Source: Eledone cirrhosa
Taxonomy: Eukaryota
Assembly: GCA_964016885.1 (NCBI GenBank)
Contig: OZ024749.1
Location: forward strand, 34,968,001-35,032,000
DNA length: 64,000 nucleotides
Direction of reading: 5' to 3'
The notes under the pieces are model-generated. The model ran no database searches. It saw only the letters and a list, made by a program, of their open reading frames with translations, and had not been told where the DNA came from. Made by a program: the position numbers and the translations under genes. Position 1 is the stretch's first letter, and each line of letters starts with the position of its first letter. Below are positions 16,765-61,175 of the stretch, piece after piece.

Positions 16765-16866
16765 ATATGAAAGAGTCGAGATCCCGACGGCTGAGCTCTT
16801 ACCGTTTCAACAGCCAGTTCCAGACTCTTTCATATAACCATACTCTACTACCCCACGTATCGAGTA
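16765..16866 (+). mobile_element. Half-hammerhead fold-back family, degenerate copy
   Basis: ATATGAAAGAGTC...GACTCTTTCATAT followed by the family tail ACTCTACTACCC..GTATCGAGTA. Confidence 0.7.
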
Positions 16867-17044
16867 TGCAGAGAAGGCCCATTCACTCGAGCCATTGTCG
16901 CCACATTCCCCCACCTTTCAGCGAATTTATTGTCGTGCAGCATCTCTCTCGACTCTCACAATCCTTTTAAAATAATATTTAAAGAAGGGTATTAGTTGTT
17001 GCCCGGAGAGGAAGGTGTTTGCCTTCGATCCTTTGATTGATAAA

Positions 17045-17545
17045 TAGATAATTTTCTTTTTATTTGCCACCAGGGCATCACAAAGTGGGACAAGTACAAT
17101 GGGGGGAGTTTACACAAAAAGGCGAGTAAAGAAAACAAATAACAAATATAAAATTAACAATAAAGTCCTCAATAGGGAGGGGGCGTTTGGGGGGGTCGCA
17201 CACCCCCCCGAAAAAAGTGTGCAACCCCTTCTCCTCAGGAGCACAGAGAGAGGGTGCTCCCTCGTTCCTTCCTCTTTTCCACCTACAGGCTGATGTAAAG
17301 AGAAGGCCCATTCACACGGGCCATTCTCGCCACTTTCACCCACCTTTCATAAAAACGACCGGGGTGGAGCACCTCTCTCTCTCCATCCTGATCCTTCTTC
17401 CGCAATGATATCGGAAGAAACGGATCAGTTGTTGGCCAGAGAGAAAGGTGCCTGACCTCAGTCCTTTCAGACGCGTCCACCATACAACCTCTTTCACCAT
17501 GGCTATTACGCACAGAAACACCGCCTCTCCTTCTATTAGCAATTT
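17045..17545 (-). mobile_element. Tx1/L1-like LINE 3' end (frameshifted ORF2 C-terminus plus 3' UTR); related fragment at 16868-16975
   Basis: AVFLCVIAMVKEVVWWTRLKGL...FFRYH and RFYERWVKVARMARVNGPSLYISL*, followed by a UTR ending AATAAAAAGAAA. Confidence 0.65.
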
Positions 17546-18187
17546 GGTCTCAAAGGTAACACGTCTATTTCATCTGGTGCATTGGTTTATTCTGTAATAA
17601 AAGTCAAACTATTGATATAAATACTCACAACTTGTACGTTGTATGTGTGTGTATGTTTATTACTGGTCACATATATATACGTATAGAGAGAGAGAGAAGG
17701 AGAGAGTATGTGTATGTAATCTCATCCGACAGTCAGCAGACGACCTCCAGCCGTGCCTACCAATACGTCTTTCTAACATAAAGTTAACCATCGTAAGAAA
17801 AAAAAATGAAAGAAAGTCTTCTCCTCCTCCTCCTCCTCACCATCATCATCATTGGCATCCTGCTCCTTCTCCGGCTCCATCCATTAAATTGTTTCATTCT
17901 AAAGAGAGACAACAGCTATGAAACACTACTGGAGGTTGGATGAGAGCACATACACCTTTCTCCAAGTGACCATTAATGTACGGCTTTCTAACACACATAG
18001 CCACTTTTCAGTTACATATATATCTCCTGTATTTTGTTTGTTTGTATATATATATATATATATTATAACCTTGATCACCTTGACCGACCAGTCTGTCGGG
18101 CGCCAATCAGCGCCGCTGGTCACAGCACGTCGTGGTGTTTTAGCCATAAGATAACGCCATCCCACTGGCTGGGCGGGCAGGCCGGCA

Positions 18188-18318
18188 CTCATTTCTACAG
18201 CTGAGTAAACTGGAGCAACGCGAAATAATGAAACAACACATCACCCGGTCCGAGAATTGAACTCACAACCTTTCGATTGCAAGCCCAATGCTCTAACCAC
18301 TAAGCCATGCGCCTTCAC
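18188..18318 (-). mobile_element. SINE family B (tRNA head plus CORE-like domain)
   Basis: GTGAAGGCGCATGGCTTAGTGGTTAGAGC...GAGTTCAATTC head. Confidence 0.85.
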
Positions 18319-18484
18319 ACACACACACACACACACACACACACACACACACACACACACACACACACACACACACACACACACACATATATATATATAA
18401 ATATATACGAACATACACATATATATATACAAACACACACCTATATATATATATATATATATATATATATATATATATATATAT

Positions 18485-18602
18485 AAGGCGTGTGGCTGAG
18501 TGGTTAGAGAATTGGATTCACAATCTTGAGGCTGTGAGTTCGATTCCTGGACCGGGCGATGCGTTATGTCCTTGAGCAAGACACTTTATTTCACGTTGCT
18601 CC
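18485..18602 (+). mobile_element. SINE family B
   Basis: AAGGCGTGTGGCTGAGTGGTTAGAG...GTTCGATTCC...TCCTTGAGCAAGACACTTTATTTCACGTTGCTCC. Confidence 0.85.
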
Positions 18603-18813
18603 TTCTACCTGGAGTTGCGACCGATAGATAGTATTAGCAACTGGAAAGACCAATGGAAACATTGTTTCCTCGGTCCGATTTGACGAAAGTCGATCGATCC
18701 TTTATTTTATATATATATATATATATATATTTATATATATATATATATATATTTATATATATATATATATATATATTTATATATATATATATATTTATAT
18801 ATATATATATATA

Positions 18814-57629: not shown

Positions 57630-57766
57630 TACTTAAGGGAAAAGAAGAGGAAGCGGTCGCTCAGGCCCCGGTATTTGACTATCTCCACGTTGCGGGCAGC
57701 AGAGCCCGGGTTTGTGGCCGAAGCGAAGCGACACGGCTGGAGGCGGAGAACGAGTCGCTGCACGGT
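57630..57766 (-). mobile_element. CRE-clade retrotransposon fragment
   Basis: Frameshifted CSDSFSASSRVAS / ATNPGSAARNVEIVKYRGLSDRFLFF resembles the CRE TC.DT.A.S...PG.AA..AE..K..KY..L...F.F segment. Confidence 0.6.
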
Positions 57767-58492
57767 TGACCTCGGCGAAATTTGAAATCAGAGTGCAGAG
57801 AGCTGGAACGAATACCGCAAAGCATTCTATCTGACGTTCTCACCACTGTGCCAGTTCTCCAAAACTCCCATTATCAAACAACCATATCCAGCTCACTATT
57901 CTTTCTAATTAAATTCATTCCCCTCTGTGGAACTTTATTAATTTATGATCTCTTCAGAAGACCAACTATTTCGGTGAAGGTCGAGGAAAGGAACAGTGGA
58001 TTAAATTGATCTTAGTTCTTACTGGAACTTATTTAATTAATCAATCCCCGTCACACAGGCGTATTAAGCTTACATGGGAACCCTGGCTAAAAGAACTATT
58101 ATGTGTATTGTATATGGTAGCAAAATGTTAATTTGGGGCTTCTAAAACCATAACATCCTATAATGAATCAGCAGAAAATATCTTAATTCAAATGATTCTT
58201 TTCTGGTGTGAAAATTTACTGACAACTAAAGTATATACATTTTTAATGTGATGCAGCCATGGTGCTGTTTTACACTTTTCATGAATGCTTTGCTAAAAGG
58301 TGATATGGGACATTAAAAGTTAACTATCGCGTGGTCCTAGTTACGGGGGCAGTCACGCCCTCACATTCTTTATTCATCCTGCATCACCGTAGATATGAAA
58401 GGCGATGTAGCGACATCGGAAGGATTCCAACATCAAACTTTCAAGGGACGTAACTGCACAAAATCGTGTGCAACAAGCGGAGATATATTATA

Positions 58493-58604
58493 TTCAAATC
58501 CCGCCGAGGTTAACTTTGCCTTTCGTCGTTACGGAGTCGATAAAATATAGCACTAGTAATCCACTGGGATAATTGCTGGCCTTGTGCCAAAAGTAGAAAC
58601 AATT
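58493..58604 (+). mobile_element. SINE family A, 5'-truncated
   Basis: Homology to the other copies. Confidence 0.85.
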
Positions 58605-59325
58605 ATATATATATATATATTTATAATATGTATAGATTAAAAATTTAAGCTAACTATTTCTGCTTTCATCCTTTAATCGGAGTTTTGGGTAAATTTGAAA
58701 TTCTTAGAAAATGTAAAAATCCGTAACTAAAACCACAGCCGATTGCTATAAACAGCTTAGTAAAATTGAGGAAAGTGAGCAGCTGCTGCTACAAAGAATG
58801 GATGAACTCCGCACATTGTGAAAGGAGGCAAAGTGAACACAGAACCTATTGTACTGAAATATATTAGGGCACAGTGTACCATTTCACATTGTGTGGTGGT
58901 GTGTGTGTTGGATCTCCGTCGGTTCTAACGACAAATGTTCCAGTTGTTCAAACAACAGAACAGCCGGCTCATGAAATCAAAGAACAGCCGGCTCATGAAA
59001 TCAAAGTGCCACGGGCACCCTTACCATATTTCTCAGGGAGATTCAGTGTGACACAGTGTGTGACGAGACTGGCCCTTTGAATTTACAAACACATCTCATT
59101 TTGCATCGACAGAATACATAAAATATGTAGCTCTTAATATTTTAGTTTTATTTATTCACAGTCGTGTATATATCGTTACAAAATGTTAATAATTCTTATA
59201 GAATCAAAATATAAACACAACTAATATATACAATTAATTATTGCTAGGAACCTTATAAATATTGACTGATAGGGGATAGCCTCACTAAATATTGACAGTA
59301 TGGGACTTCTCTCTGGCCACACCAA

Positions 59326-60685
59326 TATCTAAGTAGACACAGTAATATCTAGATAGACAGTGATATCTAGGTAGACAGTGATATCTAAGTAGACAGTAAT
59401 ATCTAGGTAGACACAGTAATATCTAGGTAGACACAGTAATATCTAGGTATAAATAGTAATATCCAGGTAGAAACAGTAATATCTAGGTAGACAGTAATAT
59501 CTAGGTAGACAGTAATATCTAGGTGGACAGTGATATCTAGGTAGACACAGTAATATCTAGGTAGACACAGTAATATCTAGGTAGACAGTGATATCTAGGT
59601 GGACAGTGATATCTAGGTAGACACAGTAATATCTAGGTAGACAGTAATATCTAGGTAGACACAGTAATATCTAGGTAGACAGTGATATCTAGGTAGACAC
59701 AGTAATATATAGGTGGACAGTGATATCTAGGTAGAAACAGTAATATCTAGGTGGACAGTGATATCTAGGTAGACACAGTGATATCTAGGTAGACAGTGAT
59801 ATCTAGGTAGACACAGTAATATATAGGTGGACAGTGATATCTAGGTAGACAGTAATATCTAGGTAGACACAGTAATATATAGGTGGACAGTGATATCTAG
59901 GTAGACAGTAATATCTAGGTAGACACAGTAATATCTAGGTAGACAGTAATATCTAGGTAGACAGTAATATCTAGGTAGACAGTAATATCTAGGTAGACAG
60001 TAATATCTAAGTAGACAGTAATATCTAGGTAGAAACAGTAATATCTAGGTGGACAGTAATATCTAGGTAGACTGTAATATCTAGGTGGACAGTAATATCT
60101 AGGTGGACAGTGATATCTAGGTGGACAGTGATATCTAGGTAGACTGTAATATCTAGGTGGACAGTAATATCTAGGTGGCCAGTGATATCTAGGTAGACAG
60201 TAATATCTAGGTAGACACAGTAATATCTAGGTAGACAGTAATATCTAGGTGGACAGTGATATCTAGGTAGACAGTAATATCTAGGTGGCCAGTAATATCT
60301 AGGTAGACACAGTAATATCTAGGTAGACAGTAATATCTAGGTGGACAGTGATATCTAGGTAGACACAGTAATATCTAGGTAGAAACAGTGATATCTAGGT
60401 AGACACAGTAATATCTAGGTAGACAGTGATATCTAGGTAGACAGTAATATCTAGGTGGACAGTGATATCTAGGTAGACACAGTAATATCTAGGTAGACAC
60501 AGTAATATCTAGGTAGACACAGTAATATCTAGGTAGACAGTAATATCTAGGTAGACACAGTAATATCTAGGTAGACTGTAATATCTAGGTAGACAGTGAT
60601 ATCTAGGTAGACACAGTGATATCTAGGTAGACAGTGATATATAGGTAACCAGTGATATCTAGATAGACACTGTAATATCTAGGTT
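59326..60685. repeat. 18/20-bp satellite GAC(AC)AGTRATATCTAGGTR
   Basis: About 70 tandem units. Confidence 0.97.
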
Positions 60686-61051
60686 AACAACATTTACAAA
60701 GTCTTGCTATTGGCTTAACATAATTAATGTGTACACAGATGGTACTGATTAGCACTACTCTCAGATAGCCCTGCTAATTAATTGGTACTGAAAAGTACGT
60801 ATTTAAATTAATTAACTCAATATAAACAGTATAAACTGCTACAACATCGATTACATAGATTGTTGTTTACATATACTGAAACTAGCACGCAATGAACTTG
60901 AAACATTTTACTCATCTTTACAGTAATGTTGTTGTTGTTGCGGTCGTCGCCATCATTGTTTCTGTTGTGGTTTAGCCCCAGGTCAGTTCAGATCGAGAAA
61001 ACCTATGACCAAAGTAATTGCAGTTGTGGTCAAACCATTATATGTATATAT

Positions 61052-61175
61052 ATAGGAAAAGAGTCAGGACCCGGGGTCCTGACTCTTTTCCTATGTGATC
61101 TACTCTACTACCCTAACTATCGAGTACTCTGGTGCGTTATGGTCCTCCTGGTTCCTTACCACACTTCCTTCGTTA
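61052..61175 (+). mobile_element. Half-hammerhead fold-back family, apex-deleted copy
   Basis: ATAGGAAAAGAGTCAGGACCCC-GGGGTCCTGACTCTTTTCCTAT palindrome plus the family tail and (TA)n. Confidence 0.85.

Follow-up and report, generated by a model that had tools for sequence, protein, structure and literature searches.

Introduction

Penelope-like elements (PLEs) of the Hydra clade, among them Hydra-1_Obim, encode a single frame of reverse transcriptase (RT) with a C-terminal GIY-YIG endonuclease, contain the motifs RW[KR], DKT, CxCX5C, CxxC and CxH but no CCHH, and combine a (TA)n target with a hammerhead near the 3′ end, an inverted 5′-truncated copy and a one-sided tail (PMC8557442). All of these features recur in the parent of a family of short hairpin insertions that we analyzed in a 64,000-nt stretch of the genome of Eledone cirrhosa (assembly GCA_964016885.1, contig OZ024749.1, positions 34,968,001 to 35,032,000), hereafter the window. 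These hairpins are head-to-head stumps of the 5′ end of the element and probably arose by two primings on one sense RNA, run-off of both complementary DNAs (cDNAs) and joining inside a TA repeat. Compared by eye, Hydra-1_Obim differs from the parent in its CUGAAGA hammerhead core and in its 2,507-bp consensus, which is listed without a pseudo-long terminal repeat (pLTR). The family described here also departs from the Hydra clade in its ~77-nt tail, where 30-40 nt is typical, and in a copy number of the order of 100,000, mostly stumps.

For the Anolis Poseidon element PAc, in vitro work showed that reverse transcription begins at two sites, one on either side of the tail, and that both target strands are cut, prime and are extended; the target is AT-rich, and a hammerhead lies just upstream of the start sites (PMC11167929). 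The family studied here would resemble PAc in each of these points. In the PAc study, cleavage was dispensable in vitro and inverted copies were left unexplained. The genomic joins reported below, in contrast, map to the ribozyme cut site and to a likely capped start. Twin priming of L1 likewise starts twice on a single RNA and yields an inverted 5′ portion. Its cDNAs cover different parts of the RNA, whereas here both would cover the same 60 nt, hence the palindrome; an extra G marks the full-length 5′ end in L1 (PMC9341517), as it probably does here. The hammerheads of the Schistosoma Cercyon PLEs share with ours U3-A8 covariation within a PLE repeat and motif pairs on opposite strands, but they are minimal and dimer-dependent, whereas the full helix III found here resembles that of fungal and protist PLE ribozymes described as active monomers (PMC4209133). 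Drosophila virilis Penelope (PMC2377424) and Adineta Penelope (PMC3846280) have a transcription start in the pLTR, an initiator-like motif, head-to-head repeats and palindromic junctions, as is the case here, with a putative start. In contrast to both, this start would lie inside the ribozyme and leave an RNA with a catalytically incomplete 5′ end.

Inverted pLTRs, one-sided tails, pLTR promoters, U3-A8 cores and Hydra elements in octopus have already been published (PMC8557442; PMC3846280; PMC4209133; PMC2377424), and the present family, its layout and its core are ordinary in kind. The function of the hammerhead in PLEs has been called unclear (PMC8557442), and inverted copies, tails, pLTR formation and hammerhead cutting in vivo are stated as open (PMC8557442; PMC2377424; PMC11167929). 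With tens of thousands of short junctions, such questions about PLE copying can be addressed by counting. The joins speak for two kinds of 5′ end among sense templates, for coordination between the two start sites and for cleavage in vivo, and the junction model gives exact predictions for RNA 5′ ends and for the existing in vitro system. Pile-ups of apices at the likely RNA start and at the predicted ribozyme cut would be a readable record of element copying. The literature searched, which for the most part did not extend to subscription papers, contained no earlier description of PLE junction classes at the cap or at the cut site, nor of the contrast between the two.

Stump Copies in the Window and in the Genome

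Element positions are numbered from +1, the A of AGTCC in hammerhead loop II. An earlier note on this DNA had listed six related copies starting at 16765, 20035, 20312, 31250, 41719 and 61052 of the window, and all six were found at these positions. Each is a palindrome in or beside (TA)n. Five have all or part of the ~77-nt tail, as the note had it, with ~35 nt of it at 16765, while the copy at 20312 has none. TA-rich repeats generally abut the copies, but TA runs are missing on the right of the copies at 16765 and 20312, which slightly corrects the note. None of the six extends upstream of about -4, so the 5′ core strand of a type I hammerhead is absent.

The young copy at 20035..20228 (minus strand, subfamily B3) has a tail arm on the minus strand that covers +7 to +138 and is 97.8% identical to the long copy L267, and a tail-less arm at 20168-20228 that covers +1 to +61. 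The ~77-nt tail (20036..20112, minus strand) lies between two inferred reverse-transcription start sites, and TAT is next in the parent at both. The hammerhead 3′ half (20168..20228, plus strand) consists of part of loop II, the 3′ strand of helix II, GAAA, helix III, GUC and the 3′ strand of helix I; the cut is predicted after 20208 and the 5′ core is absent. The earlier note had quoted the sequence at 20154-20214 exactly and was right to see half of a hammerhead there, which is the 3′ half of a type I motif within a pLTR of Penelope type. What it took for the left strand of stem II is the reverse complement of the right arm and not the natural 5′ strand. Its view that short copies are catalytically dead stands, as without a 5′ core they are unable to self-cleave. 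The hairpin at 20113-20228 has a folding z-score of -21.9, and its apex type, AATTC|AGT, is found at 1,143 places genome-wide. Beyond the TA runs, a 13-nt flank (20007..20019) recurs inverted on the other side of the copy (20254-20266). Inverted flank duplications of this kind were seen in 5-6 of 207 insertions, one of them of low complexity, including this copy and L168, L179, L188 and L148; controls gave 0.14 in shuffled pairs and 1 in 537 bare TA runs.

The assembly around the window is 3.0 Gb and microsatellite-rich. One arm motif of 26-28 nt has 66,852 exact genome matches, against 0 for the reversed control, and a second has 23,002. Sixty evenly spaced 10-kb stretches (600 kb) contained 24 family clusters, which extrapolates to ~120,000 clusters genome-wide. 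The two arms of a copy differ at no more than one position of the variable segment in 121 of 158 two-armed copies, in line with the similarity within copies seen in the window. The differences between copies are not per-copy divergence but subfamily signatures, which are also present in long parent copies; the variable segment corresponds to the 3′ loop strand in helix I. Five of the 158 copies clearly have arms from two different subfamilies (L085, L128, L190, L202 and L353). Apices are very diverse over 5,984 places, which agrees with the claim that they are made anew at insertion. L068:1270-1580 is a chimeric palindrome in which a stump-family arm is fused with the hammerhead region of another PLE family, and CAGAAT is the overlap between them.

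Parent Element

At three loci the tail continues into a 5′ untranslated region (UTR) and a PLE reading frame instead of ending in TA. From 1,050 first-look candidates for the tail extension, 40 were scored and 30 fetched, and 20 were then extended to 10 kb. An upstream search with ACATTTTAGTCC (126 places, 30 read) missed the parent, as this word is absent from its sequence. The parent is a ~3-kb element with the same repeat at both ends (repeat-to-repeat 3,013 nt in L235) and a start codon at +229. The majority reading of 12 copies gives one frame of 717 amino acids with YRDD at 348 and IY..YIG at 591; none of the 20 fetched copies is intact. Of five pieces of the open reading frame (ORF) scanned, one, from L254, matched the GIY-YIG domain PF01541 (E = 1.3e-6) and the other four had 0 matches, and none of the pieces scanned matched a Pfam RT.

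Motifs of the Hydra clade are present as RLRWR (RLKWR in L130), DKT in place of DKG, a CxCX5C linker and the endonuclease CxxC and CxH, with no CCHH and a single Cys between the GIY and YIG positions. GIKF is present and the hammerhead core is U3-A8, although non-conservation of GxKF/Y, a length below 3 kb and a canonical hammerhead in the pLTR are given for Hydra elements; the parent was set beside the published Hydra supplement alignment by eye only. With (TA)n insertion, pLTR, inverted copy and tail all present as well, the parent is by its sequence a Hydra-type Penelope-like retroelement, and the stumps are a new family of a known clade with a known layout. The coding frame of the parent fixes the sense strand of the stumps. 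A protein search for longer relatives gave five matches at 37-43% identity, without informative names.

Other (TA)n-flanked PLE 3′ ends directly adjoin stump-family copies at L034:1-1352, L059:200-1480 and L063 (minus strand). These neighbors encode a C-terminal GIY-YIG and have canonical minimal CUGANGA hammerheads of their own, and they are not the coding partner. At L196:4951-5659 three head-to-tail units lie 257 nt apart, each starting from about -3, and the first two run into the first ORF codons with the identical junction twice; this may reflect a small circular template or a repeated jump. This tandem is without the hammerhead 5′ core. In non-LTR retrozymes every unit of a non-coding tandem array has a complete hammerhead (bioRxiv 10.64898/2026.07.22.740005), and this class was ruled out, as the copies here are dispersed inverted pairs without a complete ribozyme that originate from a coding element. 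Some full-length copies contain a ~50-nt motif twice in the 3′ UTR (L238:4520-4790, minus strand), whose folding is no better than that of shuffled sequences.

Hammerhead in the Long Repeats

The long repeats carry a complete predicted type I hammerhead with a U3-A8 core. Upstream of +1 lie the parts missing from the short copies: one strand of helix I, the UUGANAA core, G10.1 and the 5′ side of helix II. The latter has 9 bp, and its loop of ~36 nt includes the putative start site; helix III is closed and has 5 bp. Three helices are thus arranged around the core, with the 3-8 pair, G10.1-C11.1, GAAA and an NUH site, as in type I hammerheads. At minimum energy, L238 folds into the three-way junction of a hammerhead. 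Across 25 aligned copies, 92.8% of 623 cells are paired, G10.1-C11.1 and A15.1-U16.1 are found in all 25, and the core pair 3-8 is U3-A8 in 20, U-G in 2 and unpaired in 3. The helix II 5′ strand is compensated in subfamily C at 379 places. The U3-A8 core is a published PLE variant (PMC4209133), and the papers searched contained no prior literature under the name C3U/G8A. Rfam gave no hammerhead match in L238 up to E = 10 and none among the 150 of 256 window matches listed.

The core motif has 6,775 genome matches. A hand count of the first 100 gave A at position 8 in 99, all four bases at position 7, and either U (76) or C (24) at position 3. The earlier note had taken the missing half to be CUGANGA, which was found in 10 of 89 G8 copies. 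The master copies with CTGANGA that it expected did not turn up: of 33 and 19 candidate places, 30 and 19 were inspected, and each proved to be an apex filler or an unrelated flank; in no case was stem I present together with a long upstream part. A lineage with the C3-A8 mismatch (for example L260, L274 and L017) has spread nonetheless, and copying may therefore not require cleavage.

Arm Ends at a Putative Transcription Start

To describe where arms end, we chose those 86 of the 467 unique elements that no search had targeted. This unselected set includes a few near-duplicates and yielded 123 arms covering helix I, with ends taken from BLAST at a precision of ~3 nt. Within -5..+8 lie the ends of 82 of the 123 arms, with the mode at +1 (20 arms), and 6 arms pass -45. 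The stop rate per base is 18% in -5..+3, compared to 0.5% in +9..+39 and 1.9% in -45..-6. Position +1 is located in loop II within an initiator-like T[TC]AGT, in which T-2, A+1 and T+3 are invariant in 25 aligned copies.

One-base joins at +1 in which both arms are A-type were found at 164 places; among the first 50, the extra base is C:G in 46. At -1, 34 of 37 A-type long copies of the parent have T. From the C:G joins, which occur despite this parental T, we infer a capped transcription start at +1 inside loop II, and the C:G base is likely a copy of the cap. The extra 5′ G in L1 has likewise been ascribed to cap copying (PMC9341517).

Joins at the Predicted Cleavage Site

Arm ends also concentrate at +42, the predicted scissile bond. 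For the exact join GACCCC|GGGGTC, 259 strand matches were counted, the first 100 lines of which represent 59 elements; control joins at two other CG overlaps have 1 and 1. Joins with 1-6 filler bases add 534 strand matches. Among the first 61 filler elements, counted by hand, both arms end at +42 and lack C17 in 35, and in 19 of these the filler is a single A/T; of the remaining elements, 19 have one longer arm, 2 are partial (one of these is a single G) and 5 are ambiguous due to CpG decay. One-base fillers are biased 46:4 toward C:G at +1 and 19:1 toward A:T at +42 (p = 2.6e-12). An opposite bias should be expected from capped versus uncapped template ends and would be unexpected from later deletion or from pausing at helix III. 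As indirect evidence, the +42 joins point to ribozyme cleavage in vivo.

Subfamilies are unevenly represented among the cleavage-site joins, according to hand counts: B1 and B3 together make up 72 of 100 lines against a baseline of 46 of 100, B2 8-10 against 21 and A 11 against 30. Weaker cleavage would account for the low share of B2, a subfamily that is partly C3-A8, but not for that of A, and the bias was set aside as evidence.

Tails and Outer Ends

The arm 3′ ends fall into two groups, +55..63 (265 matches) and +128..140 (343), with 129 elsewhere. They correspond to end points at +58 without tail and +138 with tail, and at both TAT is next in the parent. Exactly one tail is present in 240 of 266 two-armed short copies, none in 11 and two in 5, with 10 unclear. 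Among 117 two-armed copies from loci chosen without the tail, 107 have one tail, 6 none and 2 two (2 unclear), where independent ends would give 57, 31 and 27. By eye, long insertions mostly obey the same rule. Of 30 loci with one fixed apex that were inspected by eye, 13 carry the tail on the short arm and another 13 on the long arm, and 4 were not scorable. Perfect palindromes with a zero-loop apex account for 8 of 43 apices. One tail on either arm, arms of two subfamilies and zero-loop apices together rule out a single self-priming cDNA as the source.

Origin of the Palindromes

In the proposed mechanism, both target strands would be nicked in (TA)n and would prime synthesis by two RTs at two fixed RNA sites, usually on the same RNA. 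Both cDNAs would extend to the RNA 5′ end and run off, after which their ends would be joined by a template jump or by end-joining, with local fold-back possible in some cases. A capped start at +1 in loop II would produce an RNA with half a ribozyme, and the 5′ core would never be in the template. The arm ends at +42 would come from RNA already cut by the ribozyme.

Several observations weigh against parts of this mechanism. Firstly, the boundary at +1 is not sharp, as 17 of 123 arms extend to -1..-5 and 31 end at +4..+8. A wider tally of the -1 base gives T 50, G 20, C 20 and A 4, and 50 two-base joins at +1, counted by hand, are all A/T in 24 cases, G-adjacent in 18 and CG in 2. A TATA-like word at -31 is present in subfamilies A and B and absent from the one C copy examined. 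Simple run-off would not predict that 13 of 17 ORF-bearing copies that reach +3 run seamlessly past +1 (by eye), which needs read-through, circular templates or a homology jump from +1 to the RNA 3′ end. Secondly, cleavage-site joins are rare, at 259 against 66,852 arms (~1% of arms by exact counts; 5 of 123 in the unselected set). The 6-bp GAGCTC overlap has a similar join count of 213, and the +38 control has two more CpGs and hence decays faster. RNA-seq of the Anolis PLE had no reads ending at the cleavage site (PMC11167929). Thirdly, four other parent copies do not fold as a hammerhead at minimum energy (clearly so in L235, L228 and L017, narrowly in L223), the C3-A8 mismatch is present in 24 of 100 long copies, and covariation is weak, with all three double changes coming from one subfamily-C sequence and a score reached by 23 of 500 shuffles. 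Lastly, arms match in most copies, as fold-back would also give.

This last point concerns an alternative that we regard as rather unlikely, although it uses the same RNA ends: the cDNA would form a hairpin on its last bases, copy itself and then pair with another, short cDNA for which the opposite target strand served as primer. AATTC|AGT, the most frequent of the defined apices, is the product expected of a fold-back with a 6-nt loop at +1 and is compatible with either route, and the matching arms and inverted flanks described above also speak for it. Zero-loop apices and the blunt or one-base joins at +42, however, cannot form by folding, and the even split of tails between arms would still require a second priming.

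It seems less likely still that the pile-ups are RT pause sites on a longer RNA, at a U-rich hairpin in loop II and at the base of helix III, and not RNA ends. In its favor, many arms contain 1-5 bases from the region upstream of +1, most ORF-bearing copies continue past that position, and +41/+42 is at the foot of helix III. Pausing would not, however, lead to a G bias at +1 or to two arms that both lack the unpaired C17 and are joined through an A/T filler, and the initiator-like bases are invariant within an otherwise variable loop.

Self-priming as a general idea is already in print: the Adineta paper proposes that self-priming on an antisense transcript makes head-to-head PLE repeats, with palindromes at the inverted junctions (PMC3846280). 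Palindromes are found here as well, but the junctions do not fit, since the apices lie on landmarks of the sense RNA (+1 with the extra G, and the cut site) and the outer ends on two sense start sites. We consider this route very improbable for the present family. The mechanism of the earlier note, in which the cDNA snaps back on the natural stem II and primes itself, with shorter copies as later apex deletions, is more doubtful again and, as a general route, contradicted by the junctions. The junction it predicts was found at two places genome-wide, and the 41.8-kb copy as well as the 213 GAGCTC joins could be deletions. Against this, 0 of 284 inverted arms continue into the natural loop II and arms stop before the helix II 5′ strand, one tail on either arm and arms of two subfamilies remain unaccounted for, and the +42 fillers are not deletion products. 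A DNA element, either a miniature inverted-repeat transposable element with terminal inverted repeats moved by a transposase or a rolling-hairpin element with flip/flop ends, is hardly credible: two inherited isomers were suggested at first, but the defining mismatch occurs in 2 of 100 copies with that apex and thus came from the query, the apices are variable, the ends asymmetric and the coding partner is RT plus GIY-YIG.

With two primings on one sense RNA as the preferred origin, a further step can be put forward tentatively, and we rate it as possible though doubtful: an element with its promoter inside its own hammerhead might copy its RNA in the manner of retroviral strong-stop DNA, and failed jumps would leave the palindromes. 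A protein dimer would prime at two sites near the capped 5′ end, and the run-off cDNA would jump to the matching +1..+41 at the RNA 3′ end and so rebuild the pLTR. The basis for this idea is formed by the seamless ORF copies and by jumps from +1 to other RNA positions, which occur in L045, L130 and L196. If true, the centers of the palindromes would be a genome-wide map of capped starts and ribozyme cuts in living germ cells. The wording 'strong-stop' is absent from the PLE papers searched.

Other Copies and Features of the Window

The copy at 16765..16866 (plus strand) is an old, diverged two-armed stump with 77-87% identity to parent copies. Its inverted arm covers the element from +1/+7 to +61 and its short direct arm +50 to +93, which includes the start of the tail (first ~35 nt only). 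The tail-less two-armed stump at 20312..20391 is of C type, with arms extending to +12 and +30. Subfamily C is also represented at 31250..31442 (plus strand), with arms extending to about +1 to +7 and +4 and a tail on the right. The subfamily A2 stump at 41719..41843 (minus strand) has a tail arm to +28 and another arm to +46, joined via a 2-nt TC overlap; this join may be original or a later deletion. The earlier note had explained this copy and the one at 61.1 kb by later deletion of the apex. The latter, a subfamily C stump at 61052..61175 (plus strand) with a right-hand tail, is better read as an original join: its arms meet no more than one base from the predicted cleavage site (GACCC|GGGGTC), and it is a member of the cleavage-site class.

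Apart from the stumps, the window contains tRNA clusters at 992-7287 and 44835-63422 with four tRNA-Gln(TTG), one tRNA-Asp(GTC) and 11 tRNA-Leu(TAA). Several of these genes lie in 277-nt and ~191-nt tandems, and a 95-nt tandem of partial Leu genes is located at 53738-54398. Minisatellites were found at 39173-40847 (23-nt unit, 72 times) and 48566-50778 (39-nt unit, 57 times, 95% match). Two microsatellites switch strand to form hairpins, (TACA)n followed by (TATG)n at 32215-32344 and (ACT)n followed by (TAG)n at 27730-27867.

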